From: a virus
Taxonomy: Duplodnaviria; Caudoviricetes
Length of the DNA: 54,648 nt
Strand: one strand, 5' to 3'
IMG/VR virus record: IMGVR_UViG_3300025433_000326
Location: 1 to 54,648 of that record
This document shows positions 2,440-47,477 of this stretch, piece after piece. The notes under the pieces were generated by a model. That model searched no databases. It worked only from the letters and a program-made list of their open reading frames with translations, and had not been told where the DNA came from. Position 1 is the first letter of the stretch, and each line of letters starts with the position of its first letter. The position numbers were made by a program, and so were the translations under genes.

Positions 2440-2457
2440 CGCCGTTGCGGCCTCAGA

Positions 2458-31439: not shown

Positions 31440-31709
31440 ATGAAACGCTTCCTCCTGCTCCCCCTCCTGCTCGCCGTTGGCGCCCTGGCTCCTGCCTCTG
31501 CGCAGAGCCTCCAGCCAAATCCTCGCTCGATGTTCGAATACGCCAAAATGGGCGCCCTATGGCATGGCGGAAACTTCGCCAAGAAGGGCAAGTTTCGGTG
31601 GGCCTGCACGACCTACAGGCATCTGCTCTTCATTGAAGAGAGTGATAATCGCAGCACTGCCAGTGATCGAGCTACCACCAAACGACTGATCAGCAAGGTG
31701 TGCCGATGA
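31440..31709 (+). CDS. small secreted hypothetical protein
   Basis: Signal peptide MKRFLLLPLLLAVGALAPASA; two Cys. Confidence 0.6.
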   Translation: MKRFLLLPLLLAVGALAPASAQSLQPNPRSMFEYAKMGALWHGGNFAKKGKFRWACTTYRHLLFIEESDNRSTASDRATTKRLISKVCR

Positions 31710-31816
31710 CTAATCGAGTTATTCAAACACCGCCCCGCGCTGCTCTCCCCTGAGCAGTTTCAATGGTGGCTAGAAACCGCCACAATCGAAGAACTTGAAT
31801 CCTTTGCAAGATCAGC

Positions 31817-32134
31817 ATGATCCCCGAACTTTTCGCCCCATTCGCCGCCACCGCAGTTATCACGCTGGCCGTCACCGAGACGGTCATCAAACCCATCTCA
31901 ACCCGCCTGTTCAGGCGTTATGCCCCAGCCACGCTCGCCCTGTTTATGGCCAGGGCAGACGATCTGCTGTTCTGGGCAATTGAACACGACAAAACCCGCG
32001 ATGAATACGAAGCAGCTTTATGCCTGTGGATGGAAGAACAAGTAGGGGATCAGTGGGGACCGCAGGATTGTGACCGCGCATTCGGCGGTGGCTACGACCC
32101 ACGAATTGCCTTGGAGCATTGTTCCAGAACATAG
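31817..32134 (+). CDS. hypothetical membrane-anchored protein
   Basis: ATG 31817, hydrophobic N-terminus. Confidence 0.55.
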   Translation: MIPELFAPFAATAVITLAVTETVIKPISTRLFRRYAPATLALFMARADDLLFWAIEHDKTRDEYEAALCLWMEEQVGDQWGPQDCDRAFGGGYDPRIALEHCSRT

Positions 32135-32483
32135 CACCGAAAACCACACTGTTACCCAGGCTGTCCCTTATCTGCAACTCCAGACTTCTATCTACGGTGG
32201 CCGCTGGAAAGATGTTCCCATTGTCGAGCCTGAAGATGAAGAGGCGAGCTAATGACAACCAAACTTCTAAACGATTTAGCCAAGTGCGCAGTGCGCCGCG
32301 CCCATCTTTACGCTTACTCCCCTCGTTTCTGGCGTGAGGGCGCTGCTGCTTCCATTCTGTACGGCTTTTCTTGGCCTAAGGCTGAATTGCGGGGTATAGA
32401 AGAGTGACAGGGCAAGATGGTGTTGCCTGTCAGGCGAATGACACCTATTCCGCAACCCTCGAACACTCCACCAAACAAAAATC

Positions 32484-32561
32484 ATGACCGACATCGACCT
32501 ATCAAATTTTGTTAACCAAGATGTTTGTGTTGAGCAACGTTCCAAGCGGCCCAACGCATGA
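32484..32561 (+). pseudogene. truncated 25-aa ORF ending inside the attC-like site
   Basis: MTDIDLSNFVNQDVCVEQRSKRPNA*; its TGA overlaps the methyltransferase ATG. Confidence 0.45.
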
Positions 32562-32618
32562 GTTCACCGATCCATAGCGAGGAACGAGCGGAGGATTCGG
32601 TGCAACGCCTTGTTCTGT
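32549..32618 (-). mobile_element. integron attC-like recombination site
   Basis: Minus strand: ACAGAAC-AAGGC-GTTGCACCGAATCC-...GCTCGTTCCTCGC...-GGATCGGTGAAC-TCATGC-GTTGGGC. It has AAC/GTT R boxes, unpaired spacers and two extrahelical bases. Confidence 0.8.
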
Positions 32619-33688
32619 CCGATTCGGTGGAACTGTGGCTGGGCGATTGTCGGGAGATTGCGCCGAATCTTTCTGGCGTAGATTTACTGGTTGCAGATCC
32701 GCCCTATGGGATGGGGAAAAAGGGAATCATGCACGATGACATCTATGGGAAAAAGCTGGACGCCTTCCTCATGGAATGCTGGGGGGCTTGCCGTCCCTCT
32801 CTCAAGGACAACGCAAGTGCCTACATCTGGGGGCAATCGGAGGACTTGTGGCGGCTGTGGTATCGCGGGGGGCTGAACGACTCGGAAAGACTGACAATGC
32901 GAAATGAAATCGTGTGGAACAAGGGCAGCGCGCAAGGAATGGGTTCCGATCAACACCGGAGGTTTCCCACAGCAACGGAGCGCTGTCTGTTCTTCATGCT
33001 CGGAGAGCAGGGGTTCAACAACAACGCCGACAACTATTGGGAAGGGTGGGCACCGCTTCAATTATATTTGAAAGGCGAGCGTGATGCGATGGGATGGACA
33101 AGCGTTGAACTGAAACGGTTAGCGGGTCACTCGGCGAGCGGGCACGACCACTGGACGGGATTGTCGCAATGGATGTTCCCCACCCGTGAAACTTACGACG
33201 CATGGAAAGCGGCAGCAAGCGGCCAAGCATTCAAGCGGGAGCACGACGACCTGAAGCGGGAGCATGACGACCTGAAGCGGGAGCATGACGACCTGAAGCG
33301 GGAGTTCTACGCCACCCGCGCACACTTCGACAACGGACACCAGAACATGACCGATGTCTGGACGTATCCGAGAGTGAACGGCAAGGAGCGCCACGGCCAC
33401 GAATCACCCAAGCCGGTCGCGATGATGGCGCGAGCAGTGAAGACTAGCTGCCCCGAAGGTGGGCTCGTTCTCGACCCATTCATGGGGACGGCTCCCACCG
33501 CTATCGCGTGCATCCGAACAGGTCGCCGATTCATAGGGATAGAAAAAGACCCCGACCACTTCGAGACGGCGCGGAAGCGGATCGAGGCGGAACTCGCTCA
33601 GGGCGATCTATTTCTTAGACAGACGGACACCCTTAGCAATGCCCCCCACGCCCAACCTCAGCCCTCATTTCCCAGCGAGCTGGCCTGA
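32558..33688 (+). CDS. orphan N6A/N4C DNA methyltransferase (beta class)
   Basis: DPPY, HESPKP, VLDPFMG, FIGIE motifs. Confidence 0.93.
   Translation: MSSPIHSEERAEDSVQRLVLSDSVELWLGDCREIAPNLSGVDLLVADPPYGMGKKGIMHDDIYGKKLDAFLMECWGACRPSLKDNASAYIWGQSEDLWRLWYRGGLNDSERLTMRNEIVWNKGSAQGMGSDQHRRFPTATERCLFFMLGEQGFNNNADNYWEGWAPLQLYLKGERDAMGWTSVELKRLAGHSASGHDHWTGLSQWMFPTRETYDAWKAAASGQAFKREHDDLKREHDDLKREHDDLKREFYATRAHFDNGHQNMTDVWTYPRVNGKERHGHESPKPVAMMARAVKTSCPEGGLVLDPFMGTAPTAIACIRTGRRFIGIEKDPDHFETARKRIEAELAQGDLFLRQTDTLSNAPHAQPQPSFPSELA
33233..33304 (+). repeat. 21-bp in-frame VNTR (KREHDDL x3.4)
   Basis: AAGCGGGAGCAYGACGACCTG repeated. Confidence 0.95.
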
Positions 33689-33892
33689 TCCCGCCATGTT
33701 CTGGCCTGCCCTACAGTTGCTGGAGTCAACCACCCCGCGCCCAGCGCCGCCGTTCCTGTCCAACAGAGGGGAGGCATGGTTCTGGAATGATGACTCGGAT
33801 TGCTGGGAGTTGCTTCGATGGAGGGATCTTGGCGGCCCTGGGATTGCTGACTACAGATATTGGCTGCCGTTTTACATGATTCCACAGGTTCC

Positions 33893-34249
33893 ATGACCAC
33901 GCCTGACCTGCGCCAACTCAAGGCCATCCCGGAATCGCCCTACAAGGAAGCCCTGGCCGCTGCTCTAGGTGTCGAGTTGCCTCCCGAGGGTGTTAGCTCG
34001 ATATGGACCATCACTCCCTGCCCTGGGGCTCTCTCTGTTCAATTCGTATCAGCCGGGAAAGGTGGCGGCCCCGATACCTGGGTGGTTTTCGCCACTGACG
34101 ACTATCCGCACCGGTCTGGCGTCTACACCGATGGGTCTGCTGCTCTCGCAGCTGCCAGCCCCCAGGGCGCCGGCATCGCTGCTGGTCAGTCTCTGCGCCG
34201 TTTTATGCGCTTTTGGGGCTGGTTACCGGAGAAGGAGCGCCAGCTGTGA
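33893..34249 (+). CDS. hypothetical protein
   Basis: ATG 33893; overlapping stops and starts with neighbours. Confidence 0.55.
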   Translation: MTTPDLRQLKAIPESPYKEALAAALGVELPPEGVSSIWTITPCPGALSVQFVSAGKGGGPDTWVVFATDDYPHRSGVYTDGSAALAAASPQGAGIAAGQSLRRFMRFWGWLPEKERQL

Positions 34250-34488
34250 AGCACTGCCACAGCTGCGGCATCCCCACCCGTGCGCATGGGCTTCTGTGTC
34301 GGCACTGCAGCAAGCAAACGCCTGAAGCGATCCTGGCCAGGGAGCAGAAGCGCAGAGAGAACGCCCCCACCAGCTGCCCGGCTTGCATCCATTGGACGGC
34401 GCCCGCTGGCTGCTACTTCGAGTTCCCCGAGGCCGGCGGCCGGTTTTACCATTGTTCGGCCTTCAAGCGCCAAGGCCCGGATGGCTAA
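34246..34488 (+). CDS. Cys-rich Zn-binding hypothetical protein
   Basis: CxxC x3, CIHW...C.FEFPE...C; similar to the tail of 23968..24447. Confidence 0.55.
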   Translation: MKHCHSCGIPTRAHGLLCRHCSKQTPEAILAREQKRRENAPTSCPACIHWTAPAGCYFEFPEAGGRFYHCSAFKRQGPDG

Positions 34489-35395
34489 GCGGCAAGTGGT
34501 CAACTGGAAAGAGTCCTCTCTCACCGGGGCGCTGGTCGCGCTCCATGACAGCTGGATCAACAAGGTCGGGCCTGAAGAGCTGGAGGCGGATTTTCCCGCC
34601 GCCGGTTGGATCCCAATAGAGGGAGCGAATGAAGAACGTACTGATGAGTCGCCACTGGTGATCTGAGGCCTGCTCCCAGGCCCCCCACTGGCTGAACGTG
34701 GCGACCCAGTTTTGCCGCTCGAGGTTCGGGAGCTCACCCAGCTGATCCATCGCCAGCTGGTTTCTGACGGCCATCAAGGGGTACTTCATCCTGCGCATCC
34801 CTACCGCCTGAAGACGTTGCCCGATGTTTACATAATCACCAAGCAGTTTTAGCCATTCCTGTTGCCGTGCCAGTTGTATCGGGTTGCGGTGCTCGCAAAG
34901 CCGTGCAAGCTGAGGCAGCCGGCTTTGCATGGCCTGAAAGAGGGTTCGTTTTATCATCAGTTCGTGGACCTTATATTTTGGGCTATAGCATTTCCTGCAA
35001 TGCCACCCGGGCCCAGTATTGCAATCGGTTCTTTTCAGTCGGGTTCGGCAATCCCCGCAGCGAATGAGCCCATCAAACGTGTGCTGCTTTCCCCCGAACA
35101 GTTCGTTGCAACCCTTGCCGGCATTGATCAATCGTTGGCCAGCGGCCCAGTCAACTTCATCAATTAGCCGCGCTTCTGTTTCCTGGTGACCCTTGCCACG
35201 CAGCGCAGGATTCTCCCAGAATCGCTGGAGGGTGATGCGATAACAGCCCATCCGCCGCGCAGTTGTCGCCCAGAGAAACCCGGTGTCAAAGAGACTCTCG
35301 ATCCACGTCTTCGCTATTTCCCAGTTGTCTGGGTGTTTTTTCAGTATCCCGTCAGAGACGCAAAAGCCAAAAGGGCGTGTCTTGACCGCTTCCAA
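34463..35395 (-). CDS. large serine recombinase C-terminal region (recombinase + Zn ribbon), no catalytic domain
   Basis: RPFGF, WENPALRG, LIDEVDW, FDGLIRCGDC...WHCRKC, coiled coil, FIRSLYW. Start uncertain (TTG 35395). Confidence 0.65.
   Translation of the reverse strand: MEAVKTRPFGFCVSDGILKKHPDNWEIAKTWIESLFDTGFLWATTARRMGCYRITLQRFWENPALRGKGHQETEARLIDEVDWAAGQRLINAGKGCNELFGGKQHTFDGLIRCGDCRTRLKRTDCNTGPGWHCRKCYSPKYKVHELMIKRTLFQAMQSRLPQLARLCEHRNPIQLARQQEWLKLLGDYVNIGQRLQAVGMRRMKYPLMAVRNQLAMDQLGELPNLERQNWVATFSQWGAWEQASDHQWRLISTFFIRSLYWDPTGGGKIRLQLFRPDLVDPAVMERDQRPGERGLFPVDHLPLSHPGLGA
34481..34666 (+). CDS. hypothetical protein
   Basis: ATG overlaps the upstream gene, but it also overlaps the convergent recombinase-like ORF. 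Confidence 0.35.
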   Translation: MAKRQVVNWKESSLTGALVALHDSWINKVGPEELEADFPAAGWIPIEGANEERTDESPLVI

Positions 35396-35448
35396 AATTG
35401 AATTGTCCGCTGTTGAGTGAGTAACATCATGCCAGCAGGTTCCCTTCA

Positions 35449-36108
35449 ATGAGTAGCAAGCGTCCCGCCACTTTGCCGCCGTTGCCACCCACGACGATGA
35501 CAACCCTGGCAGCGCTGCTGCCGGATAGGAAGAACGCCCGGCGTCGAACGCAACGGTCCACAGGGATGATCGAGCGTTCTCTCTCTGAGTTCGGCGCGGC
35601 CCGGTCTGTGGTGATTGATGAGCACGGGACCCTCTTGGCCGGGAACGGCACCGCCGAGGCGGCCGCATCGATCGGGATTGAGCGGGTGCTCATTGTTCCG
35701 GTAGATGGCAACACGCTGGTGGCGGTCCAGCGTTCTGATCTAAATCCCGAACAGAAGGCCGAGTATGGCGTTGCTGACAACCGTTCGTCAGACACCTCAG
35801 GATTCAGCGGGGAAGCTCTCAACACCCTGCTGGAAGAGCACTCTGGCCTCGATCTCAGTCCTTACTTCACCGATGATGAGTTCAAAGCGCTGATCAGCGA
35901 CCTGGACCCACCTCCAGGCGATAAAGGGGGAGGGGAAGGAGCCAGCGCGGGCGGCCTCGAAGTCAAGCTGAGGTTTTCAACAGAGGAAGACCTGAGGGAG
36001 TTCCAGCAGCTGATGGTGAGGCTGGCCGAGGCAATGCCAGAGGAAGAGACGACAGAGGCGCGGCTGGTTCGAGCTGCTGAATCAATGCTGGCGAGGTTGG
36101 GCCGTTGA
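35449..36108 (+). CDS. ParB-like N-terminal domain protein
   Basis: KNARR...SLSEFGA...LAGNGT...GVADNR; typical of the region upstream of terminase. Confidence 0.8.
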   Translation: MSSKRPATLPPLPPTTMTTLAALLPDRKNARRRTQRSTGMIERSLSEFGAARSVVIDEHGTLLAGNGTAEAAASIGIERVLIVPVDGNTLVAVQRSDLNPEQKAEYGVADNRSSDTSGFSGEALNTLLEEHSGLDLSPYFTDDEFKALISDLDPPPGDKGGGEGASAGGLEVKLRFSTEEDLREFQQLMVRLAEAMPEEETTEARLVRAAESMLARLGR

Positions 36109-37463
36109 CAGCAGGCGCGGATTGGGAGAGCGGCCGGTCCTGGCGGATCACCGATAAGGAGAGAGAGCAGATCGCTGAGATGCTGCAAGCCGGGCAAGGC
36201 GCCCGAGAGATTGCCGCCGCAACCAAGCGCAGCCTTCCCACGATCTACAACCACATGAGGGACATCAGAGCCGGGCGATTGCCGACAGGCGCGGCACGGA
36301 TCACCGATAAGGAGCGGAAGCAGATCGCTGAGATGCTGCAAGCCGGGCAAGGCGCCCAAGAGATTGCCGCCGCAACCAAGCGCAGCCTTCCCGCGATCTA
36401 CAGGCACATCAGCGACATCAAACCCGGGCGATTGCCGACAGGCGCGGCACGGATCACCGATAAGGAGCGGAAGCAGATCGCTGAGATGCTGCAAGCCGGG
36501 CAAGGCGCCCAAGAGATTGCCGCCGCAACCAAGCGCAGCCTCTCCACGATCTACAACCACATGAGGGACATCAGAAGAGCCGGGCGATTGCCGACAGGCG
36601 CGGCATGGATCACCGATAAGGAGCGGAAGCAGATCGCTGAGATGATGCAAGCCGGGCAAGGTGCCCGAGAGATTGCCGCCGCAACCAAGCGCAGCCTTCC
36701 CACGATCTACAGGCACATCAGCGACATCAAAGCCGGCCGATCGCCGGAAGAAGCCAGGCGGCGGTGGCGGCAACGCCGGGATCTGGAGGCGGGCGGTTCC
36801 GGCTGCCTGCCGGCTGATCAGCCTGTCAATGTGCCGCTGCTGATCGAGCGCTACGCCCTGGGGGCCTCGATCGGAAGCCTGGCCAGTAGTTTGCGGATCA
36901 GCTATCACCGTGTTCGAGCATTGATCGTTGATGCCGGGGTGCCAATCCGGCGAAATGGAGCCAGGGGGCCAGGCCCTGAGAGGAAAGGACACCTGTGGAC
37001 CACGGCAGAGGCCTCAGCCTGCCGCCGAATGATGGCCCAGGGCCAGCGCCAGGCAATCATCGGCATGGCGCTGGGGCGAAGTGAGGCCTCAATAGGGGCA
37101 TGGCTCTACGACCAGTCGAGGCCCGGCCGGCCCGAGCGCGCCGCCACGATCTCCCGCCGCCGCCGCGGTGACCTGCTCCCTGAAGAAACGCCAGAGGTGG
37201 AGGTGATGGATCGGATCGTTGCTGGTTGGCTGGATGGCGAAAGCGTGGTGGATCTGGCGGTTCGCCATCGCCTGCCGAGCCCGATCATCTCCGGTGTGCT
37301 GCGGCAGCGTGGTCACCATTCAAAGAAAGGCCGCAACCCGGCGAAGCTGAAGAAGCAGGCCCAGCAAGCCGCCCTGGCTACCTGCGCCAAGCACCTGCCG
37401 GCCTTTGGCGGTAACGAACTGGTCCTAGCTTCACTTCAGGCGCGAGCATCAGGCCGTGGCTGA
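36105..37463 (+). CDS. multi-HTH DNA-binding protein
   Basis: Four near-identical HTH repeats plus three more HTH-like segments. Confidence 0.75.
   Translation: MTAGADWESGRSWRITDKEREQIAEMLQAGQGAREIAAATKRSLPTIYNHMRDIRAGRLPTGAARITDKERKQIAEMLQAGQGAQEIAAATKRSLPAIYRHISDIKPGRLPTGAARITDKERKQIAEMLQAGQGAQEIAAATKRSLSTIYNHMRDIRRAGRLPTGAAWITDKERKQIAEMMQAGQGAREIAAATKRSLPTIYRHISDIKAGRSPEEARRRWRQRRDLEAGGSGCLPADQPVNVPLLIERYALGASIGSLASSLRISYHRVRALIVDAGVPIRRNGARGPGPERKGHLWTTAEASACRRMMAQGQRQAIIGMALGRSEASIGAWLYDQSRPGRPERAATISRRRRGDLLPEETPEVEVMDRIVAGWLDGESVVDLAVRHRLPSPIISGVLRQRGHHSKKGRNPAKLKKQAQQAALATCAKHLPAFGGNELVLASLQARASGRG
36144..36740 (+). repeat. 4 x 153-156 bp coding repeats
   Basis: Units start at 36144, 36297, 36450 and 36606 (ITDKERKQIAEML...TKRSLPTIY). 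Confidence 0.95.
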
Positions 37464-37884
37464 GGTCAAGGCCATCTCAAAGGCGGCTGAACGCCGCTAC
37501 CAGGTTCATGCCCTTCATCGCTGGGTGGTGCGCGATGGGTACGGGCCAAAGCAGCTGATGGACGCCGCCATCAAAGGCTGGAAGTGTTCCCCCCGGGTGG
37601 CCTCTGGATTGGTTGCCGAGGCCCTTGAGCTGTCGGTGACAGCGATCAGCCACTACGACCGCATTCGGATGGCATCTGTTCAGGTTGAGCGGATGGAGGC
37701 CCTGCTGCAGCGCTCCCTCCAGCAGGGTGAGCTCCAGGTGGCCCTGGGCGTCAATCGTGAGCTCAACGCCTTGATCTTCAAAGTGGCTGAGTTTGAAGCG
37801 GCTCAAGAGGAAGCGGCGGCCGCCATTGCCCCATCACTGACAGAGGAAGAGCAGGAAGCGGCTGATCGCGCCGGGGACTTCTAG
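37456..37884 (+). CDS. putative terminase small subunit
   Basis: Helical 142-aa protein immediately before terL. Confidence 0.5.
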   Translation: MAEVKAISKAAERRYQVHALHRWVVRDGYGPKQLMDAAIKGWKCSPRVASGLVAEALELSVTAISHYDRIRMASVQVERMEALLQRSLQQGELQVALGVNRELNALIFKVAEFEAAQEEAAAAIAPSLTEEEQEAADRAGDF

Positions 37885-37887
37885 CCC

Positions 37888-39429
37888 ATGGCATGGGATG
37901 ACAATGCGTGGGCTGAATACGACGCCAAGAATCGGGCCCTGATCACCCCCTACCAGTTCCCGCATCACGGCTTGCACCGCCCGCGCAAACGGGTGCAGCC
38001 CATCTTGCGGCACCTCCCGCGCAGGCCGCTCTTCACTGGATTGATCGGATCCAATCTGTGGGACAACCTGCCGAAGCAGTGGCCGCATTTCGCGGCGCGA
38101 ACAACAATTGCGTCTCAGGGGAAATACCTGCCCTTCATTCCCTGGGAGGTCCAGCTGGATCTGGTCCGAATGATTCGGAGCACCCAGAACGTTTACTGCC
38201 TGAAATCAAGGCAAACCGGCGTTTCCGAAACGGTCATCAATTACATGCTGATGATGGCCATTGAAAACCCAGCTTGGGTGGGCATCGTTTTCAGCAAGAC
38301 CGGCGAGGATGCGTCAGAGCTGGCGGCCCGCATCAAAGGCCAGGCGGCCAGCCTTGGTTCCTTCTGCCCGCCCCTGCCAAAGGATTCTGCCCGCAAGCTG
38401 CAATTCCTTGGCCGTGGATCGCTTCACTTTCTGCCGCCCACTGAACGAGCGGCCAGGGGAATCCCATCGGCCTCCATGGTCCTGTTCGATGAGGGCGCCT
38501 TCATTGAGAGGCTGAGCGGGATTGAAACCGGCGCCATGCCCACCCTGAGCCTCCTGGGCCCCAGGGCGCGGGCGGTGTGGGTCAGCACCCCCAACGGCCG
38601 CAGCGGCCGCTTCCATGAGCACTGGACCACTGATCACGGCGAAATCCCGCTAGGGCCGGCCACGGTGAACGGGATTCCAACCCTGGCCCGTTCACCCGAT
38701 GGTCAGTTCGGCAAGGTTGCGATCCACTGGAGCCAGCATCCAATCTTTGCCGCTGACCCTGACTACCAGGAGAAGACCAAGCGGAAGTTTCAGCTCACCC
38801 AGCAGCGCTACCAGCAAGAGTTTGAGCTCGACTTCACTGCCACCGATGCCGAGGTCTACCCGCACGAACTGATCGAGGCTGCTGAGGCCATCGGTGCCCT
38901 GGATGATCCAACCAGCGGGAACGTCTACGTGATCGGGATCGATCCCAACGGCGGCGCCGATGATGAGTTCGTGACCACGGTTCTGGACGTGACAGCCAGC
39001 CCCTGGCAGGTGGTGGCCCGGTTCAACGACTCGCGCCGCAGCAGGGATTACGGCCTGCAGCGCAGCGCCCGGCTGATTGACCAGTTCGCCCCGGAGCTGA
39101 TCGTCATCGAGAAGAACGGCGTGGGTGCTGCGGTGGCCGAGAGCCTGGCCCGGCTTCGCCCTGGATACCCGATCGAAGAGGTTGCCACCAGCCGGCCGTC
39201 GAAGGTCGCTATGACCGATCGGGTGCTGCTGCTGCTGGAGCAGGGCGAGCTGGGCCTGCCGCCCAACGACATCTACGGGGAACAGATGCGAGTCTTCCGC
39301 CAGCACCCAGACGGCACCCGCGAGGCCGCCGCTGGCGCGCACGATGATGCCGTGATGTCTCTGGCCATGGCCTGCGAGGCCGGCGCCCGCACCCGGCCGA
39401 TGGTGGCCGAATGGGTCAACATGACCTAG
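37888..39429 (+). CDS. terL: terminase large subunit
   Basis: LKSRQTGVSE (Walker A), VLFDEGAF (Walker B), STPNG, IGIDP, IEKNGVG, HDDAVMSLA. Confidence 0.95.
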   Translation: MAWDDNAWAEYDAKNRALITPYQFPHHGLHRPRKRVQPILRHLPRRPLFTGLIGSNLWDNLPKQWPHFAARTTIASQGKYLPFIPWEVQLDLVRMIRSTQNVYCLKSRQTGVSETVINYMLMMAIENPAWVGIVFSKTGEDASELAARIKGQAASLGSFCPPLPKDSARKLQFLGRGSLHFLPPTERAARGIPSASMVLFDEGAFIERLSGIETGAMPTLSLLGPRARAVWVSTPNGRSGRFHEHWTTDHGEIPLGPATVNGIPTLARSPDGQFGKVAIHWSQHPIFAADPDYQEKTKRKFQLTQQRYQQEFELDFTATDAEVYPHELIEAAEAIGALDDPTSGNVYVIGIDPNGGADDEFVTTVLDVTASPWQVVARFNDSRRSRDYGLQRSARLIDQFAPELIVIEKNGVGAAVAESLARLRPGYPIEEVATSRPSKVAMTDRVLLLLEQGELGLPPNDIYGEQMRVFRQHPDGTREAAAGAHDDAVMSLAMACEAGARTRPMVAEWVNMT

Positions 39430-39509
39430 GGCCGGCCTCTCGCTTGAGCGCCTGCAGCCCCAGGGCCCGGGCCTGATCAGCAGGGCTCCGCCCGCCCGGG
39501 TTCAGCGGT

Positions 39510-39806
39510 TCAGCGGCCATTGTCAGGCCCCTGATAGCGGCCTTCGAGCATCTCACCCCGCAGTTCTGGGCCTTGTGACTGATCCCAGAGCACCCGCAGC
39601 GTTCGCGGTTGCCCGCGGGTCCAGCTCACGGCACCCGCGGCTCTCAGCCCTAGCAGCGCCGCCTGGACGCTTGAGGTGGCCTTCAGGCCCCGCGCCCGCT
39701 GCAGATCCCGAACGGTGGGGGCGTAATCATGCCGGCGCCCGAAGGCTCGGATCGCTTCCAGCGTTTCCGCTTGGGGCCATGTGAGAGCTTCCTCTTGGGC
39801 GTCCAT
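39510..39806 (-). CDS. LexA-type DNA-binding domain only
   Basis: LTWPQ...YAPTVRDL...GLKATSSV...L...G...PRTLRVL; no protease domain. Confidence 0.8.
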   Translation of the reverse strand: MDAQEEALTWPQAETLEAIRAFGRRHDYAPTVRDLQRARGLKATSSVQAALLGLRAAGAVSWTRGQPRTLRVLWDQSQGPELRGEMLEGRYQGPDNGR

Positions 39807-39853
39807 CCTGCGGTTCTTTGCCTGTAAGTATGCACTCTACTGGCACACCTGCA

Positions 39854-40735
39854 CTAGCGTCGAAAGGTGCTGAACAGGCCCAGCTGGTCGCTTTCCCTGC
39901 CCTCCAAGCGTTCTCGCAGGTTGATGAGCCCGGAACGGCTGAGGCCTTTGGCCTGCTCCAGGCCCAGCCCCATCCCTCTGGCCACCTCGGCGAAGGTTTC
40001 GCCGTCAAGGCGCCGCAGCATCACCTCTTGCTGTTGTGGCCAGGGCGCCAGGGCGCAGCTGACTGCCTGCAATTGCTGCTGTCGCCGTGTTGAGGCATTG
40101 TTTGAGCTCGCCTGAATCGCTGTCAACAGCGTGTTGCTTTCGCTTTCGTCATCATTGATCAGGACATCCAGCGAGGCCTGCCTGTGGCAGGCTGCCGCCA
40201 GGGCCAGGGTCTGGAGGTCAGCAGGCGATAGATCCATCCCCGCCATTGCCTCTACATCGGTGGCCGGCCGGCCATGCTCAAGCTGGAACCGCTCCCGCCA
40301 CTGCCGCAGCTGGTGCATCCGTTCGCTTCGCTTCACCGGCACCCTGATGCCGTTGGCGGAATGGATCAACCGGATCATGCTCTGCCGGATCCAAGGCACG
40401 GCATAGGTCGAGAACTTGTAGCCGCGCATCGGGTCAAACTTTTCAACTGCTCGCGCCAGCCCGATCGAGCCCTCCTGGATCAGATCGGCGACATCCAGGG
40501 AGATGATGCCCGCGACATTGAAGGAGCGGCTGCACGTCACGACCAGCCGCATATTCCGGGCCACCATCTGCTCGCGGGACCGCAGCCCTGAACGCTTCAC
40601 CCGCAACGGGGCGTCAGCTGGCGACGGTGGCCAGTCTTGCCAGGCTCGAATGGCTCGGCCATGGATCAGTTGCTCTTCAAAGGAAGGGATTGGCAAGCGC
40701 GAGTACGCCTGTAGCTGATCGTCCAGCGAGCTCAC
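39854..40735 (-). CDS. sigma-70 family RNA polymerase sigma factor (RpoD/group 2-like)
   Basis: NMRLVV, DLIQEGSIGLARAVEKFDPMRGYKFSTYA.WIRQ, IRVP, region 4 HTH. Confidence 0.93.
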   Translation of the reverse strand: MSSLDDQLQAYSRLPIPSFEEQLIHGRAIRAWQDWPPSPADAPLRVKRSGLRSREQMVARNMRLVVTCSRSFNVAGIISLDVADLIQEGSIGLARAVEKFDPMRGYKFSTYAVPWIRQSMIRLIHSANGIRVPVKRSERMHQLRQWRERFQLEHGRPATDVEAMAGMDLSPADLQTLALAAACHRQASLDVLINDDESESNTLLTAIQASSNNASTRRQQQLQAVSCALAPWPQQQEVMLRRLDGETFAEVARGMGLGLEQAKGLSRSGLINLRERLEGRESDQLGLFSTFRR

Positions 40736-40840
40736 AAAGGGGAGGTCTAATCAGGCCGGCCCTACCCTACGGGGCTCGTCATCGTTGCTCAGCAATCAAC
40801 AGGGGCAGCATTAACCTGAAACCACGTAGAAGGCTACAGA

Positions 40841-42751
40841 TTGGCCATCGGATTCCTTCAGGATCAGGCGCCTGATTCCAACCGGATGGATGGGCCGCTG
40901 TTGAACGTGCTCACCGGCATGGGCACGTCCAACGACCGCAGCCAGGCCACTGGCATCCAGGGCGGCCGTGCTCTGGGCGAGGCAGAGATCAATGCGCTCT
41001 ATGAGCAATCCTGGCTGCTCCGCCGGGTGGTTGAGAAGATTCCCATGCAGGGCACCCGCAGCGGCTGGGACCTAGGCCTGGGCGATGAAACCACCACCAC
41101 CGAGCGCAGCAAGCTCGATGATCTGGTTAGTTGGACAGAAGAGCTGAAGCTGCCGCAGGCCGTGACCACTGCCGCCACCTACGCCCGCCTGTATGGCGGT
41201 GGTGCGCTGGTGGTGTTGGCGGATGATCGCACCCCCATCGACAAGCCGCTCAACCTCAAGCGGCTGCGCAGCATCAAGGGGTTCTACCCCATCGATCGCT
41301 GGAGGTTGTACCCGTCTGCAGGTTGGACGGGCATCGGTTCGCCTGAAAGCTATTGGTTTGAAACACAGCAGGATCGCGACCTGACGAAGGCTTCAGGCGA
41401 TCCAGGCCTGGCTGATGCGTTGCAGGTCGATATTCATGCCAGCCGCATCATCCGCTTTGAGGGCCTGCCCTGCAGCTGGCGCACCATGCAGTCGCGCCAA
41501 TGGTGGGGGCTGTCGGTGGTCGATCTGTGCTGGGACGTGTTCAAAAGGTTCGAGACAGGCCAGCAGAGCGCCGCGGACATCTTGCATGATTTTGATCTGG
41601 TGGTTCACACCCTCCCGAACCTGCAGCGGATTCTGGACGCGGGCGGCGAGCAGAAGCTGCGCGAACGGCTGCGAGTCAACAGCATGGCCAGGTCTGTCTA
41701 TGGGGCCTACGTCCTGGGCGAGGGCGAAACCCTGGCCAACCTCAGCCGATCAGCCGCAGGCATCGCCGACATCCTCGAAGGCCTGAAGGGCGAGATCACC
41801 GGTGCCTCAGGACTGCCCCACACCATTCTGTGGGGTGAAAGCCCCAGCGGCATGGGAGCAGATGGCCGCAGCGAGCAGGCCGCGTTTGGCAATGACGTGG
41901 CTGATTGGCAGGACCGCGATCTCCGGCCGCCCCTCCGCCGAGCGTTTGAGCTGGCCATGGCCTGCTCCGATGGGCCGTGGAAGGGGAAGGATCCACCGGA
42001 GAGCTGGGCGGTGGAGTTCCGCCCCAACTACACGCCAACAGAAGATGAGCAGGCTGATTTGCGCGGCAAGGTGGCCAACGCTGATGTTCAATACATCCAG
42101 GCCGGTGTGCTGTCGACCAACGAGGTGGCGCTGGCCCGCTTCGGCAAGCCGCGTTTCAGCCTCACGACGACGTTGATCGATCGCGAGGAAGATGGCAGCC
42201 TTAAGCAGCCAGAGCCTCCGGCCGGCGCTGCTGGCGATGAATCCGAGATTGAGTTCGGCGAAAGCCTGGCCGAGCAGGAGGCCGATCCAGGCGGTGCCCC
42301 CCCTGATCCAGAGGAAGAGCCCCCCTCGAGCCGGGGTGATCAGGCTGACGCCTGCTGTGACGATTGCGAGGCCCGATCCCAGGAGCTCGCCCTTTCAATC
42401 ACGGCGAACCGCCGCCGCCGCAAGCAGCGGAAGGACGCCCCGGCCATCCCCCGCGCTGACGCGGCCGGCGACGTGATCGAGCGCTGCGGGGTGAACATCC
42501 GAATTGATAGCCAGGGCCTCGGACGCATCCTTGCCCCCTATGGGCAGGAGCTGCCCCATCCGGTAGCGGTGGGCCCAGACATCAGCGGCGCCTGGGAGGT
42601 GTTTGAGCCATCGACTGGCGCCTACCTCCTGGCGATCGGCCACCAGCACGTCCGCGGCATCCGCGATTCAATCGGGCCAGGCCCCACGATCCGGCAGATC
42701 GATGGCACTGATCTGGTGGCCCTGGGGGCCCGCTGTGACGCCTATTCCTGA
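40841..42751 (+). CDS. portal protein (DUF1073-like) with C-terminal extension
   Basis: ARLYGG, IHASRII, WWGLSV, PHTILWGESPSG; located between terL and MuF. Confidence 0.88.
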   Translation: MAIGFLQDQAPDSNRMDGPLLNVLTGMGTSNDRSQATGIQGGRALGEAEINALYEQSWLLRRVVEKIPMQGTRSGWDLGLGDETTTTERSKLDDLVSWTEELKLPQAVTTAATYARLYGGGALVVLADDRTPIDKPLNLKRLRSIKGFYPIDRWRLYPSAGWTGIGSPESYWFETQQDRDLTKASGDPGLADALQVDIHASRIIRFEGLPCSWRTMQSRQWWGLSVVDLCWDVFKRFETGQQSAADILHDFDLVVHTLPNLQRILDAGGEQKLRERLRVNSMARSVYGAYVLGEGETLANLSRSAAGIADILEGLKGEITGASGLPHTILWGESPSGMGADGRSEQAAFGNDVADWQDRDLRPPLRRAFELAMACSDGPWKGKDPPESWAVEFRPNYTPTEDEQADLRGKVANADVQYIQAGVLSTNEVALARFGKPRFSLTTTLIDREEDGSLKQPEPPAGAAGDESEIEFGESLAEQEADPGGAPPDPEEEPPSSRGDQADACCDDCEARSQELALSITANRRRRKQRKDAPAIPRADAAGDVIERCGVNIRIDSQGLGRILAPYGQELPHPVAVGPDISGAWEVFEPSTGAYLLAIGHQHVRGIRDSIGPGPTIRQIDGTDLVALGARCDAYS

Positions 42752-44133
42752 TGGCTGATCGTTCCGTTGAACTGCTCGAGCATCTCGATCTGGAGATGCG
42801 TGGCCTGGAGGATCAGCAGCTCAAAAAGCTGCAGGGCATCTTCAACGAGGCCCTAAGCCGCACGATCCGCTCCCTGATCGACCGGCTGGAGAAGATCGAC
42901 GCCCAGCCGATCTACGATCCCAAGCGCACCCCAGGCGCCTTTCAAGGGTCAACGCCTGCAGGGCCCGAGATCATCACCCCGCTGCAAAAGAACCAGGCCA
43001 GCCTCTACCTCCAGGGCCAGCTGCTGCAGGATCTGCAGGTGATCATCGGTCGCTTCCCGCAGGACAAGGCCGCCGGCCGGGCCCTGGACACTGAACTGGT
43101 GGAGCTCTTCCGCCGCGCTCACGACCTGGGCAGCGAGTACGCCATTCAGCTCAGCCAGAACATGCTGGAGCCTGCGGCCAAGCTCTCGGCCACTCACCCG
43201 CTGATCACCCAGGCCGGCCAGGTGCCGCCGCCCGCAGCGCCTGCAGCACCAATCACCCCAGGCGGCGGCTACCAGGAAGGGCAGTCATTCACCCGGCTGG
43301 TCAACATCGGCGCAACGGTCGCCGCCGCCGAGCGTGATTTCAAGAGCCTGTCGGAGAACTACCGCCGGCAGCGCGATGCAGCCACCAGTGAACGGGTGGT
43401 CGCGGCGAAGGATTACTTCTATCGGTGGTGGCGTGACTGGGGCGATGCGGTGCAGGTGGAAACAGCCACCCAGCTGGCAACGGGCCTCGATAGCAGGGCG
43501 CTGGCCCGCACCCTCAAGGCAAGGCTGCCGAACATCAATGAGGCCTTCCGTAACCGGGCCGAGACAGTGGCCCGCACCGAAACCCACATCGCGGCCGGGG
43601 AGGCCAGAGAGCGCACGTTCCGCCGGGTTGGAGCTGGCTTTGTGCGCTACATCACCACGGCAGACGATCGGGTGTGCGAATGGTGCGCTCCACGGATGGG
43701 TTGTTTATACTGGGCAGGCAGTATTAAGACGCCGATTCATCCAAATTGTCGTTGTGCATTGTCACCTATTACCCTTGAATCGCTGGTGATTCAGAATAGC
43801 TTAGCGGCCAAGGCGTCAGAGCGCTGGGAGCAGGAGCAGCAGGCCCTGGCTGCCGTCACCCGCACCAAGTATGAGCAGGCCAACAGCAGGCCATGGCGGC
43901 CAACCGGTGGAGGTGACCAGCCAAGAGGCGCGGGCGATTTCCCGCTGATGGAGAAGACCAGCCTGCCGGCCACCCAGCGGCGCCGTGGGCCCGGTGCAGC
44001 GGTGGCGAATGCTGGCGCGCAGGCATGGCCTGCAGGCGATCCGGTGTGGGCTCCTGGGCGGGGCTGGCTGGATCAGGGGGCCCGGGTGGCCTATGAAGCG
44101 ATGGTCAGAGAGGTTGCTGAGATAGCGGAGTGA
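42751..44133 (+). CDS. head morphogenesis protein (MuF/SPP1 gp7-like)
   Basis: RAETVARTE, DDRVCEWC, PIHPNCRC. Confidence 0.88.
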   Translation: MADRSVELLEHLDLEMRGLEDQQLKKLQGIFNEALSRTIRSLIDRLEKIDAQPIYDPKRTPGAFQGSTPAGPEIITPLQKNQASLYLQGQLLQDLQVIIGRFPQDKAAGRALDTELVELFRRAHDLGSEYAIQLSQNMLEPAAKLSATHPLITQAGQVPPPAAPAAPITPGGGYQEGQSFTRLVNIGATVAAAERDFKSLSENYRRQRDAATSERVVAAKDYFYRWWRDWGDAVQVETATQLATGLDSRALARTLKARLPNINEAFRNRAETVARTETHIAAGEARERTFRRVGAGFVRYITTADDRVCEWCAPRMGCLYWAGSIKTPIHPNCRCALSPITLESLVIQNSLAAKASERWEQEQQALAAVTRTKYEQANSRPWRPTGGGDQPRGAGDFPLMEKTSLPATQRRRGPGAAVANAGAQAWPAGDPVWAPGRGWLDQGARVAYEAMVREVAEIAE

Positions 44134-44257
44134 CCACCTTGAGCGCAAGGGAATCATCTGGCAGGTGGATTTCGGCGAAACTTTTTTCAAGTTGTGCGTA
44201 ACCCTTAAATCTCGCAGTTGTTTCTTCATCCATAGCTGTAGAGGGTGGTAAGGGCAT
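44105..44257 (-). CDS. small hypothetical protein (50 aa)
   Basis: ATG directly after the CCACCGCTCCCCA leader motif. Confidence 0.4.
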   Translation of the reverse strand: MPLPPSTAMDEETTARFKGYAQLEKSFAEIHLPDDSLALKVVTPLSQQPL

Positions 44258-44286
44258 GTGTGGGGAGCGGTGGCTGTTGAGGTGGC

Positions 44287-44357
44287 GAACCTGTAAGCCC
44301 CCCTTACAGGTTCAAGCTTCCCCAATAAAGGAAGCGGTCATTTCCTTTATTGGGGAA
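44287..44357. promoter_or_regulatory. two adjacent perfect inverted repeats (11-5-11 and 16-8-16)
   Basis: GAACCTGTAAG-N5-CTTACAGGTTC and TTCCCCAATAAAGGAA-N8-TTCCTTTATTGGGGAA. Confidence 0.6.
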
Positions 44358-44434
44358 TCGCCTTCAGGGCTTGGCAAGCTCGCGCTCAAAAGCGGCAACG
44401 CATCGGCAATCTTCGGCGTGAGCCAGCAGCAGAT

Positions 44435-44500
44435 CGCTTTGCTCACCGGAAAATTAGGAGCGCAGCGAGTAATTTTTCCGAGTGCAGCAACTTGTTAAGT
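44435..44500 (-). mobile_element. integron attC-like site truncated at the crossover point
   Basis: Minus strand: ACTTAAC-AAG-TTGCTGCACTCGGAAAAATTA-CTCGCTGCGCTCC-TAATTTTCCGGTGAGCAA-AGC-G|ATCT. The methyltransferase stop codon lies inside R''. Confidence 0.85.
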
Positions 44501-45661
44501 GCTTTTGGGTTTGAGAACACGAAAAATGGATTGCCCGACTTTTTTCCCAAGCTCAGCAGGGACTGCATTTCCAAGTTGGCGCATTACTTCACCCCAAGAG
44601 CCTTCAAAGTCAAAGTCATCAGGAAATGTTTGAATTCTAGCGCTTTCACGAACAGTAAAGTAACGAACACTTCCATCTTCAAAACGAATCATATTCTCGC
44701 CTCCCGGAATACCATGCCCTCCAGCCTTCAACGCCTTGGAAGGCTCGTCAATATAACTGCCTGTATGGCCGGGATAGATTTTGGCACCACCTTTAAAAAC
44801 ATGATGGTTAAATTCATTAGCTTTTTTAGATTCAGGGTTAGGGAGATCTGAAATGGCATCGCGAACTGTGACCCATGGCTCCAACTCCGGTTCAAACATT
44901 CCATATTTTTGCTTTAACCTTTCTACTCTATTCTCTGTTTTTTCGTCCATTTTTGAGCATTGAACTTTATGCTTTTTCCAGTATTCTTTTGTAACCCATT
45001 TACTCCAGAGCAAAGCGTCCTCGGAGTGTGTTGACTGAGGAAACGACCAGTTTGCATCAACGTCTGACCTGAAACCAACGATAAATACCCGCTCTCTTTT
45101 TTGAGGGACGCCATAGTCTGCTGCATTTACAAGACGATACAATACGTTATATTCGAGATCTGCATACTTATTCTTAGTATGGTGTTTCTCTAATCGCTCT
45201 CGATGCTTTTCCCATTCTTCATTCCTTTTCTTTTCTATCGAGGGATATTGCAATTGTAATACTATATATTCAAAATATTCGAAAAAGCTTTTTCTCAACA
45301 AGCCTTTTACATTTTCAAATACGAATGCTCTTGGTTTTTTCTCTCTAATAGCCCTAACGGCTTCTGGAAACATATCTCTGGCGTCATCGTGGCCATTCGC
45401 TTTGCCGCCAAGGGAGAAAGGCTGGCAAGGTGGCCCACCTGATATTAATTCTATTGTTTCTGGTACGCTTAAATAATCGAACTTGGTTACATCACCTTCA
45501 TATACTCCAGCCCCCCGAGTAAGCAATTTATTTGCTCTTAGAGTTCGGCAAGCATCTTTGTTAAATTCAACTACTGCCTTTGGAGTAAAGCCGGCGCTGT
45601 GAAGCCCTAACGCTAACCCACCTGCACCTGCGAACAATTCAATTGAAGACATTTTAGCCAT
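44495..45661 (-). CDS. orphan DNA (cytosine-5)-methyltransferase, low GC
   Basis: LFAGAGG, GGPPCQPFS, ENV, QKRER, GNAVP motifs; sharply AT-rich compared with its flanks. Confidence 0.95.
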   Translation of the reverse strand: MAKMSSIELFAGAGGLALGLHSAGFTPKAVVEFNKDACRTLRANKLLTRGAGVYEGDVTKFDYLSVPETIELISGGPPCQPFSLGGKANGHDDARDMFPEAVRAIREKKPRAFVFENVKGLLRKSFFEYFEYIVLQLQYPSIEKKRNEEWEKHRERLEKHHTKNKYADLEYNVLYRLVNAADYGVPQKRERVFIVGFRSDVDANWSFPQSTHSEDALLWSKWVTKEYWKKHKVQCSKMDEKTENRVERLKQKYGMFEPELEPWVTVRDAISDLPNPESKKANEFNHHVFKGGAKIYPGHTGSYIDEPSKALKAGGHGIPGGENMIRFEDGSVRYFTVRESARIQTFPDDFDFEGSWGEVMRQLGNAVPAELGKKVGQSIFRVLKPKST

Positions 45662-45699
45662 TATCTAATTAACCTTCTTAACATTGTAACTAGCGATTT

Positions 45700-45749
45700 C
45701 TGGAGAGCGGTGGGACGTGGCCGGGCAAGCCCCGACGGGCTGTTGGTGG
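45700..45749 (-). repeat. conserved intergenic leader repeat (copy B)
   Basis: CACCAACAGCCC-GTCGGG-GCTTG-CCCGGC-CACGTCCCACCGCTCTCCAG. Confidence 0.8.
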
Positions 45750-45911
45750 TCAGTCGGTCCAACGGGCCCATTCATCGGGATCGGGGAAAGCCTCATCGTT
45801 TTCGCCAAACATGAGCACCCTGTTGTATGCAGCGATCTCGGCGGTGGTCAGGCCTTCATAGGGCTGTTTGCCCGCGGCGTAGTTGGCGTTCACTTTGTCT
45901 TTGGCGGTCAT
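45750..45911 (-). CDS. small hypothetical protein (53 aa)
   Basis: MTAKDKV...WTD, bounded by two leader repeats. Confidence 0.6.
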   Translation of the reverse strand: MTAKDKVNANYAAGKQPYEGLTTAEIAAYNRVLMFGENDEAFPDPDEWARWTD

Positions 45912-45914
45912 CAG

Positions 45915-45964
45915 CTGGGGAGCGGTGGGGCAAGTGCCAGACAAGCTCTGGCGGGCTGTTGGTG
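45915..45964 (-). repeat. conserved intergenic leader repeat (copy A)
   Basis: CACCAACAGCCC-GCCAGA-GCTTG-TCTGGC-ACTTGCCCCACCGCTCCCCAG. Confidence 0.8.
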
Positions 45965-46156
45965 TCAGGCAAAGCGGCCGGCCACGTTCCAATCAGGGTT
46001 TGGTTCGCCAGCCCTGCGGTAGTTTTCTTCAAACAGAGCATTCAGATTGCGAGCACCCAATCCTTGATGGCTTCGACAAATAAAGATTGCGCCTTCAATT
46101 GCGTGGTTGCTCATTGAATCAAGGTTGTAATCAAGGGCGATAAAAGCTGCGGGCAT
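45965..46156 (-). CDS. small hypothetical protein
   Basis: Preceded by the leader motif and an extended -10 promoter. Confidence 0.6.
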   Translation of the reverse strand: MPAAFIALDYNLDSMSNHAIEGAIFICRSHQGLGARNLNALFEENYRRAGEPNPDWNVAGRFA

Positions 46157-46200
46157 GGCTGGGGAGCGGTGGGGCGCGAAGGCCTCTCGCCTTCATTCAT

Positions 46201-46209
46201 ATTGTAGCA
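46201..46209 (-). promoter_or_regulatory. extended -10 promoter TGCTACAAT
   Basis: TGnTACAAT upstream of a hairpin and the leader motif. Confidence 0.6.
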
Positions 46210-46214
46210 CGTTG

Positions 46215-46463
46215 CTAACAGCAGGGATTATTCTCTTCCGCCCATTCCGCTGCCTCTTGCTCTGTCGCAAAAGGCCCAGCCCAGGTAACGATGCTGGCTT
46301 GCTCTCCCAACGGGCCGAGCGGGTGCCTGCGGAAAAAGCTGGCGCCTTGCTTCTGGATTGCTACCGCGTCAAGACCGTCCGCCAGGTCACCCCAGAAAAG
46401 GATGGCCGCTATCCAGCCATCAGGAGCAAGGCCTACATCTTCCGCCCAGCTGGCTTTGGTCAT
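46215..46463 (-). CDS. hypothetical protein
   Basis: ATGA-coupled; GPFATEQEA motif. Confidence 0.55.
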   Translation of the reverse strand: MTKASWAEDVGLAPDGWIAAILFWGDLADGLDAVAIQKQGASFFRRHPLGPLGEQASIVTWAGPFATEQEAAEWAEENNPCC

Positions 46464-46843
46464 CGCTGGAGGCCTTCGGCGGTGGACACCTGCCGGTCGA
46501 GCAGCTCCGCCAGAACAAGGTCGCCATCTTGTCTTGGTACGTTCTCCCAGCGGTGGCCTTCCATCCGCCAGAACACGATCAAGGGCATCGCGTCGCGCAT
46601 CGCCAGGATGTCTTCCAGCTTCATGTCCATCGACCAGTCAGTGACTGGTATCAGCAGCCGCCAGCCCGCCACTCCCCCGACAACGTGCTTCGCCAGGGAG
46701 GGCGAGCTGCAGGCCAGTTGGATTGGCCACCCGTAGACATCAACTCGATCGGGGAAAGTGCTGCAGCGAACGCCGATGATCACGCCGGGCTTTCCCCAAG
46801 CAACGGACGCGATCAGGGGCCTCTGAGATTTCAATGGCATCAC
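46460..46843 (-). CDS. hypothetical protein
   Basis: 127-aa ORF in the leftward island. Confidence 0.55.
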   Translation of the reverse strand: MMPLKSQRPLIASVAWGKPGVIIGVRCSTFPDRVDVYGWPIQLACSSPSLAKHVVGGVAGWRLLIPVTDWSMDMKLEDILAMRDAMPLIVFWRMEGHRWENVPRQDGDLVLAELLDRQVSTAEGLQR

Positions 46844-47236: not shown

Positions 47237-47477
47237 TTCGCTGGGGAGCGGTGGGATTTGCCGGCGGCGCCTGTAGCGCGCTCAGCGGCCACACCATAGC
47301 CCAGAAAATGCGATCCGCCAGCTGCTGCTCACGTCATTTCCCGGCGGATCAGCGGCCGCGTTGTCGTTGGCCGCGTTTGGCCCTGGCGGGCCCCCTCGCG
47401 GCGGATCGCGTCCTGCTCTGCTGCGCTCAAACGCACATAGGCCGGCCGGCGCAAGGCAAAGCCGTCTTCTGCCAGAG

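Follow-up and report, generated by a model that had tools for sequence, protein, structure and literature searches.

Integrons have come to be regarded as reservoirs of genes for defence against phages. Phages themselves carry parts of this machinery: for 10,705 phage genomes, the available part of Qi et al. 2023 (PMC9892861) lists 3 complete integrons, one In0 and 17 clusters of attC sites lacking an integrase (CALINs), with five cassette-borne methyltransferases, and describes phage attC sites that recombine with attI1 under the integrase IntI1, which recombined five of the six tested. Its authors propose that such phages access cassettes that overcome host defence; one of their examples, Polaribacter phage P12002L, has two methyltransferase genes and divergent attC sites, and they also cite earlier reports of restriction-modification (R-M) systems in cassettes. 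In the available part of the preprint of Loot et al. (10.1101/2022.09.11.507474), IntI inserts cassettes at GWT sites of the genome, attG sites are defined, a single attC without integrase arising from such an insertion is termed a SALIN (single attC lacking an integrase), and imprecise events that alter the flanks are described. Here we have analysed a Caudoviricetes phage genome, the whole IMG/VR record IMGVR_UViG_3300025433_000326 (54,648 bp, called the window in what follows; G+C content 0.605; labelled provirus, with a CheckV completeness of 82), in which two DNA methyltransferase genes, MT1 at locus 1 and MT2 at locus 2, each stand next to an attC site.

This phage resembles the phage CALINs of Qi et al. 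2023 (PMC9892861) in having attC sites without an integrase, methyltransferases as cargo, sites in both orientations and a proposed role in escape from restriction; because phage attC clusters with methyltransferases are described there, the kind of element is already known, which weighs against its novelty. The two differ in that those CALINs come from single reference genomes, whereas here six structures of one locus occur in near-identical phages, with gain and loss at the exact crossover. The lineage is also set apart by nine variable segments that all carry methyltransferases, by two R-M cassettes with a truncated endonuclease and by one secondary site in the head module; in the available part of that study, no comparison of near-identical phages appears. 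What is new is therefore the allelic series with exact crossovers within a population, the all-methyltransferase array, the conversion of R-M systems to orphan methyltransferases and a traceable donor beside a real integrase. We put at roughly 80% the probability that both loci were built by integron-type site-specific recombination, with the integrase supplied in trans; the lineage draws on the bacterial cassette pool, probably to escape restriction enzymes. The phage would have taken up methyltransferase-encoding cassettes at two places, without an integron integrase of its own.

The attC sites of the window

Because folding alone was unpersuasive, we built an attC covariance model, named R1. 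Integron integrases were located with TIGR02249 in a sample of 251 genomes (91 of them positive), and the DNA adjoining 20 of these integrases, together with two found earlier, was fetched as the source of attC sites. Candidate sites passed a rule-based filter and were then aligned; the alignment used (A2) retains 38 of 43 sites, from 15 bacterial integron loci, three badly aligned sites and two redundant sites of L092 having been dropped. No site of this phage lineage, or of the bacterial loci L035 and L038 described below, is among them. Compensatory changes were found at 10 of the 15 pairs given by RNAalifold, and separate pair counts were also made.

Run with its filters off over all 54,648 bases and both strands of the window, R1 returned nine matches at E ≤ 10, only two of them at E < 0.01; the third best scored 12.8 bits. 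These two matches reproduce, in coordinates and in strand, the attC-like hairpins that an initial annotation, made from the sequence alone, had proposed on the minus strand: attC1 at 32549-32618 (29.2 bits, E 3.4e-5, full length) and attC2 at 44435-44500 (22.4 bits, E 0.0018 over 44435-44494, model positions 7-68), E-values that are rough owing to the brief calibration of the model. The control DNA comprised about 1.75 Mb. Among 72 other loci (839,307 bases) there were three matches, of 53.2, 51.9 and 16.5 bits, the first two of them in L052, a bacterial array in which the first attC match abuts an MT2 homologue. No match was found in 80 IMG/VR loci with MT1 homologues (510,926 bases), and the ten found in 80 metagenome loci with MT1 homologues (405,529 bases) all fall in five loci, L194, L195, L196, L203 and L211, which match the MT1 region of the window at 84-100% DNA identity. 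These controls show that R1 matches of at least 20 bits are rare outside true cassette arrays. Rfam returned nothing at either hairpin, at gathering scores or at E ≤ 10, and the presence of an attC family in Rfam was not established.

Both sites have the inverse core boxes of attC, for which the consensus is RYYYAAC (R'') and GTTRRRY (R'), as given in the available part of Qi et al. 2023 (PMC9892861). In attC1, the R'' box ACAGAAC (32618-32612) has one purine at a Y position, the hybrid R' box GTTGGGC occupies 32555-32549, and the crossover point lies between 32555 and 32554. In attC2, the R'' box ACTTAAC (44500-44494) overlaps the stop codon of MT2, and the site is cut at the G of R' (44435), where it is joined to the phage sequence ...ATCTGC; the full R' box is present in L038 and L035. 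The stems are imperfect at both sites, the R1 alignments leaving unpaired (extrahelical) bases in the minus-strand 5' arm, and the fold of site 2 has three one-base bulges, all in one arm. As single-stranded DNA, site 1 folds no better than its shuffles (z = +0.10 and -0.59) and site 2 modestly better (z about -2.0; 8 of 200 shuffles fold equally well). It is the model of structure plus sequence, not stability, that identifies these attC sites, and it confirms both hairpins as genuine.

As had been annotated, the window contains no intI: neither TIGR02249 nor PF00589 gave a match at E ≤ 0.01, so that no tyrosine recombinase was found in a record estimated to be 82% complete, and the 54,648-bp record holds no complete integron (intI, attI and promoter). 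The strand assignment made initially stands for attC1, attC2 and MT2 and fails for MT1, which lies on the plus strand, antisense to attC1. IntegronFinder clusters attC sites into CALINs within about 4 kb; with 11.8 kb between attC1 and attC2, the window has two SALINs. In relatives, unlike the solo site first proposed, locus 1 holds several cassettes and counts as a CALIN: L195 has three attC sites inside 2.2 kb, and L196, L203 and L211 have two apiece.

MT2 and its bacterial donor

MT2 (44495-45661, minus strand; PF00145, E 1.3e-66) is a C5 cytosine DNA methyltransferase of the type found in Eco29kI R-M systems. Its G+C content is about 0.40, against about 0.63 in the flanks, and it lies in a foreign segment of 1261 bp (44436-45696, minus strand; G+C 0.418). 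The relatives compared with the window were all metagenome contigs, and the same junctions recur in contigs that carry different record names. Among the relatives found around the portal gene, L001 is 99.8% identical and has MT2, while L003, which is 99.6% identical on both sides, has 120 bp in place of window positions 44436-45696; these are the first 40 codons of a 63-aa minus-strand open reading frame (ORF), whose 3' remnant is left in the window at 44364-44434 (minus strand). The empty-site allele that the initial annotation had proposed to seek among related phages thus exists.

The closest homologues of MT2 are bacterial, and 45 genome loci were fetched. An attC match abuts the 3' end of the methyltransferase gene in four of them (L035, L038, L040 and L052), including three of the six closest; L036, L037 and L039 have no attC match at E ≤ 1. 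In L035, a Porticoccaceae metagenome-assembled genome (MAG), the homologue has 95% amino-acid identity, and DNA identity to the window is 93% over 45699-44435, exactly the foreign segment. In L035 an Eco29kI-family endonuclease gene (PF09517, E 1.6e-49) runs up to the methyltransferase start codon, its last 38 nt lying directly ahead of it; these 38 nt, at 45662-45699 (minus strand) in the window, are all that MT2 retains of that gene and now form its leader. The hairpin of L035 is a full attC of 72 nt, from R'' ACTTAAC to R' GTTAGGT (46.1 bits). L038, a Rheinheimera MAG, supplies the integrase: an integron integrase at 1873-2850 (minus strand; TIGR02249, 459 bits against a cut-off of 265) is accompanied by four attC matches on the plus strand, opposite to it, and the second cassette consists of an Eco29kI-family endonuclease (80% identical to that of L035), a methyltransferase with 76% amino-acid identity to MT2 and an attC of 36.4 bits, in that order. 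From R'' to the G of R', attC2 is the attC of this R-M cassette at 65 of 66 bases. The ends of the L038 cassette are complementary at 7/7 positions, and the MT2 cassette of the window is truncated at its 5' end. By sequence, then, the donor of the MT2 segment is a bacterial R-M cassette. The complete cassette of L038 serves defence, whereas the phage copy, which lacks the endonuclease, would serve counter-defence. Orphan DNA methyltransferases of phages were reportedly treated by Murphy et al. in 2013; MT2 is like them in having no cognate endonuclease and unlike them in that its route of acquisition is visible, through the attC site and the cassette boundaries. In L035 we also observed that the R-M cassette and a second cassette form a low-G+C island (4500-7500) between dCTP deaminase and CBS-domain genes, with attC matches of 46.1 and 19.1 bits; the contig has no integrase, another contig of the same MAG has one, and the island is a chromosomal CALIN.

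The two ends of the segment are of different kinds. After the G of R', L038 and L035 continue TTAG..., whereas the window continues ATCTGC, as does the empty site of L003; because the window matches the empty site from this G onwards, the 3' junction of MT2 coincides with the integron crossover, and the sequence it joins is a G|AT target. The 5' junction is set within the endonuclease gene, at a microhomology of sequence AAA(A)T. An R'-like partner had been annotated upstream of MT2, and the heptamer is indeed there, but it is not a junction, since the bacterial homology runs through it to 45699. The simplest history would have two steps: the attC of an Eco29kI-type R-M cassette would have recombined with a G|AT secondary site in a small ORF of the head module, and a deletion at 4-5 nt of microhomology would then have removed the endonuclease gene together with 120 bp of phage DNA, so that the methyltransferase was orphaned. 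As an alternative that we do not prefer, a single imprecise event would account for the segment in one step. With one attC, no integrase and the G of R' joined to AT, which fits the IntI1 GWT consensus, locus 2 (44435-45699) is like the SALINs in the available part of Loot et al. (10.1101/2022.09.11.507474); it is unlike them in that they lie in bacterial chromosomes, whereas this insertion went into an ORF of a phage and has kept no more than the 3' part of its cassette.

An 18-nt motif occurs in five same-strand copies around MT2 (44259-44276, 45699-45716, 45914-45931, 46158-46175 and 47240-47257), with the plus-strand consensus GCTGGGGAGCGGTGGGGC. Each copy, in minus-strand reading, stands ahead of a minus-strand ORF, and at least three of them (45914, 46158 and 44259) stop a few bases upstream of the ATG of a small one; the copy at 45699-45716 lies upstream of MT2, and in L003 it lies directly upstream of the 63-aa ORF that MT2 replaces. 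A 29-nt stretch adjoining two of the copies is likewise repeated, and the 11-nt core has nine matches where 2.4 ± 1.5 are expected. A likely role is that of an expression signal, kept upstream of MT2; it may be a promoter or a start signal, perhaps one read by the sigma factor of the phage.

Allelic structures at locus 1

Locus 1 (32520-33764), with the replication module on one side and the packaging module on the other, contains MT1, an N6/N4 DNA methyltransferase (32558-33688, plus strand; PF01555, E 2.7e-34). A metagenome scan with MT1 gave the five contigs named above as matching the window around this gene, and among these five, L003 and L004, six different arrangements are found between the flanks that all of them share. 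By R1, L195 has three attC sites, L196, L203 and L211 have two apiece, and L194 (colinear with the window), L003 and L004 have a single one. The most telling difference is that of L196, which reads as the window plus 943 bp: the 40-mers 32515-32554 and 32555-32594 are unchanged, and the 943 bp lie between them, at 32554|32555. On the attC strand the insert begins TTATCG, ends ...TTCG and has an attC of its own (35.4 bits). Its form is exactly that of an integron cassette placed between the G and the TT of the R' box of attC1, and the cassette is thereby a presence/absence polymorphism by insertion at the exact crossover. The left landing flank (32520-32554, minus strand), which starts TTGGGC, follows attC1 in the window and in L194 and the attC of a cassette that we call D in L196; L195 joins it one step further on, at 32519.

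By its allelic breakpoints, the MT1 cassette spans 32555-33623 (minus strand), its 3' end being the G of attC1. Its other end is a breakpoint common to L196, L203, L211 and L004 and equivalent to window position 33623, at which three different attC sites are each joined through G|TTCTGT, a 7/7 complement of the R'' box of attC1; beyond it, the C-terminal tail of MT1 differs between alleles. The R'-like partner annotated at the far end of MT1 is thus borne out in the relatives, while the window, like L194 and L195, reads G|TCTGT, one T short of G|TT. At the right landing site, called alpha (33761-33770, minus strand), the conserved phage sequence ...CCTCTG is followed by TTGGAC in the window and by TTAGCG in L003, and both of these 5' ends are also found after attC sites in L195, L211 and L203. 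TTGGAC, TTAGCG and TTCTGT are each found, depending on the contig, after the phage flank or after attC sites that differ from one another. A 138-nt unit (33624-33761, minus strand; TTGGAC to GTCCG) separates the MT1 cassette of the window from the conserved phage flank, and L195 carries this unit in duplicate, on either side of an XhoI-type R-M cassette. We considered the unit as an attC and rejected it: R1 does not match it and its ends complement no internal R'' box.

A true cassette should have ends that match each other: its 5' end, preceded by the G, is expected to be complementary to the R'' box of the attC that it carries. This complementarity, scored on ends read by eye, is 7/7 in four of the five phage cassettes examined (MT1, D, the type IIG cassette and the L203 methyltransferase), as it is in five of five bacterial control cassettes; the fifth, cassette C, matches at 4/7, or at 6/7 if the alternative start is used. 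The scoring leaves out segments with one end that has no correctly oriented detectable attC, namely methyltransferase B, cassette E and the L004 methyltransferase. One of the phage sites has a counterpart in a bacterial integron: the attC of L203 (600-657, minus strand) and that of L094 (5137-5191, minus strand; genome G119), a site outside the final training set of R1, have almost identical L-box sequences and a central stem that differs in a compensatory way, a likeness that gives a hint, at the level of sequence, of the taxon from whose integrons the phage draws cassettes.

The cargo is uniform. Ten ORFs of the variable segments were scanned, and eight have Pfam matches, seven to DNA methyltransferase domains and one to a C-terminal fragment of an XhoI endonuclease (E 8.8e-28); the other two overlap matching ORFs on the opposite strand. 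With MT1 and MT2 included, all nine variable segments have a DNA methyltransferase domain: three are C5 enzymes (one the N-terminal part only), four are N6/N4 enzymes, one is an Eco57I-like methyltransferase and one a 949-aa type IIG enzyme, similar to Eco57I and MmeI, with a nuclease-type N-terminus. The Eco29kI-type and XhoI-type R-M cassettes have both lost endonuclease sequence and kept the methyltransferase, and MT1 and MT2 (PF01555 and PF00145) stand as orphans. Methylation of the phage DNA to escape restriction would be the function of these enzymes. The hexamer that we take to be the Eco29kI/SacII site is not avoided, occurring 46 times in the window against 35 ± 5 in shuffles. A seemingly complete type IIG R-M enzyme and a companion methyltransferase were seen in L211 (679-3528, plus strand, and 3631-5358, minus strand), and also in L003 and L196, so that phages with those alleles may carry restriction activity of their own. 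Within MT1, a 21-bp tandem repeat (33233-33304) encodes KREHDDL three times, and its homologues have one to three copies.

The origin of the arrays and its meaning

A number of observations weigh against integron-type recombination as the source of both loci. Some concern the attC sites: the calibration of R1 was brief, attC1 folds no better than shuffled sequence, and sites are found in either orientation, as if segments had been inverted or cassettes inserted both ways. Others concern MT1, which is antisense to an attC1 that overlaps the first 61 nt of its longest ORF. A GTG at 32627 is a possible shorter start, typical of the shorter homologues, and several homologues share the residues VQRLV..., encoded within the R''/L'' half of attC1; since they recur, part of attC1 may be old coding sequence, older than the array. 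Outside the phage lineage, MT1 homologues were never linked to attC, in any of 80 IMG/VR loci or of 75 metagenome loci, and none was found at E ≤ 1e-30 in 400 genomes, a sample of one class. Cassette-borne homologues, which the initial annotation had looked to as a check, were therefore obtained for MT2 and not for MT1. The junctions are a further point. The window lacks one T at 33623, cassette C has imperfect ends, and the 5' junction of MT2 and the right-hand junctions of L203 (CACCC) and L004 lie at microhomologies rather than at G|TT, so that illegitimate recombination also acts here; the expectation that relatives would differ at G|TT crossovers holds for the L003 join at the G of R' and for the 943-bp insert of L196, but not for the deletion at the 5' end of MT2. 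Finally, a search for a host or prophage with the portal protein gave no match at E ≤ 1e-40 in the same 400 genomes. Because neither a host in that sample nor an IntI in the window was found, we infer only indirectly that an IntI, from the host or a co-resident element, catalysed these events in trans, as initially suggested; the attC sites, the homologues and the junctions each support that suggestion in part.

The microhomology junctions and the lack of an integrase in the window would also suit a history in which the cassettes are real but were moved by homologous or illegitimate recombination without an integron integrase, attC repeats acting as patches of homology, for example in exchange between prophage and array; the available part of Qi et al. 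2023 (PMC9892861) raises off-target recombination of these kinds at GTTRRRY motifs as a route of entry into phages. We regard this as unlikely, since the sites bounding the 943-bp indel share few bases around G|TT and the indel has the exact TT...G form, since four of five phage cassettes keep the 7/7 end complementarity expected of circles excised by IntI, and since a given cassette 5' end is found joined to partners unrelated to one another, in every case directly after G. The signature of IntI at the junctions, G|TT in the R' box, argues against a recombinase encoded by the phage. The one candidate is a conserved 401-aa ORF (34463-35668, minus strand), 700 bp from the array, with a faint match to a recombinase zinc ribbon (PF13408, E 0.043, below the cut-off) and a 23%-identical paralogue downstream of the MuF gene in distant relatives; no catalytic domain, no solved relative at E ≤ 1 and no Pfam or PHROGs family at E ≤ 0.001 was found for it, and its homologues are present in distant relatives in which R1 found no attC, which makes it a very improbable replacement for a host IntI. 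Least credible of all is a reading in which each hairpin is an ordinary terminator or an inverted repeat that arose by chance, and the methyltransferases are ordinary morons of generic mosaicism. The weak folding scores would allow it, the MT1 family outside the lineage is an ordinary phage methyltransferase family, often fused to ParB, and MT2, between head genes and on the opposite strand, has the classic position of a moron. Yet R1 hits only two places in the window and almost nothing in the controls, attC2 agrees with the attC of a bona fide integron at nearly every base, the terminator scan flagged neither hairpin and no T-run follows either stem; nor did a consensus scan pick out a promoter or a terminator at either end of MT2.

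Under integron-type recombination with an IntI in trans, locus 1 is a landing pad on which near-identical phages hold different sets of cassettes, the window having one (MT1 with attC1) and relatives up to three attC sites in 2.2 kb. Tentatively, and with somewhat less than even odds, we suggest that it is a dedicated pad with attI-type fixed crossovers (...CCTCTG|TT and G|TTGGGC), where a host IntI could load, swap and invert methyltransferase cassettes, a 'methylome wardrobe'; continual exchange of cassettes would then give a rapidly changing methylome against local restriction systems. It may also be here that methyltransferase genes of phage type, MT1 among them, first join attC sites.

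The neighbouring genes are those of a phage. A replication-initiator-like gene (27992-29635) lies on one side of locus 1 and a ParB-like gene (35449-36108) on the other; a 452-aa protein with several helix-turn-helix domains (PF13936 and others), the large terminase and a sigma factor are encoded on the minus strand, and the portal gene (40841-42751) and a MuF-like head protein gene (42751-44133) precede locus 2. The sigma factor, of the sigma-70 family (39854-40735, minus strand; PF04542, phrog_351), is encoded on the opposite strand between the terminase and portal genes. Within the 452-aa protein there are four tandem repeats of 153-156 bp (36114-36746), and BLAST offsets suggest that their register or copy number differs among near-identical relatives. 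A megablast of 31500-46500 against 50,697 phage records gave no match, and an IMG/VR search with the replication protein found no relatives of the left flank.

Hitherto, the use of integron machinery by phages rested mostly on attC sites predicted in single genomes and on a few IntI1 assays. The lineage described here is a natural allelic series, in which phages that are otherwise near-identical have gained or lost entire methyltransferase cassettes exactly at the integron crossover and in which one cassette can be traced to an R-M cassette beside a real integrase, stripped of its endonuclease in the phage. The claim that phages draw counter-defence genes from the integron cassette pool thereby becomes directly testable with defined sequences, the attC and landing sites now being concrete substrates for recombination assays, and our results suggest that surveys should go beyond the clusters of reference genomes to solitary attC sites and to variants within populations. 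If the joining of MT1 to attC at locus 1 is true, it would bear on how cassettes originate; and if locus 1 is indeed such a dedicated landing pad, it would be the counter-defence mirror of the bacterial defence integron.

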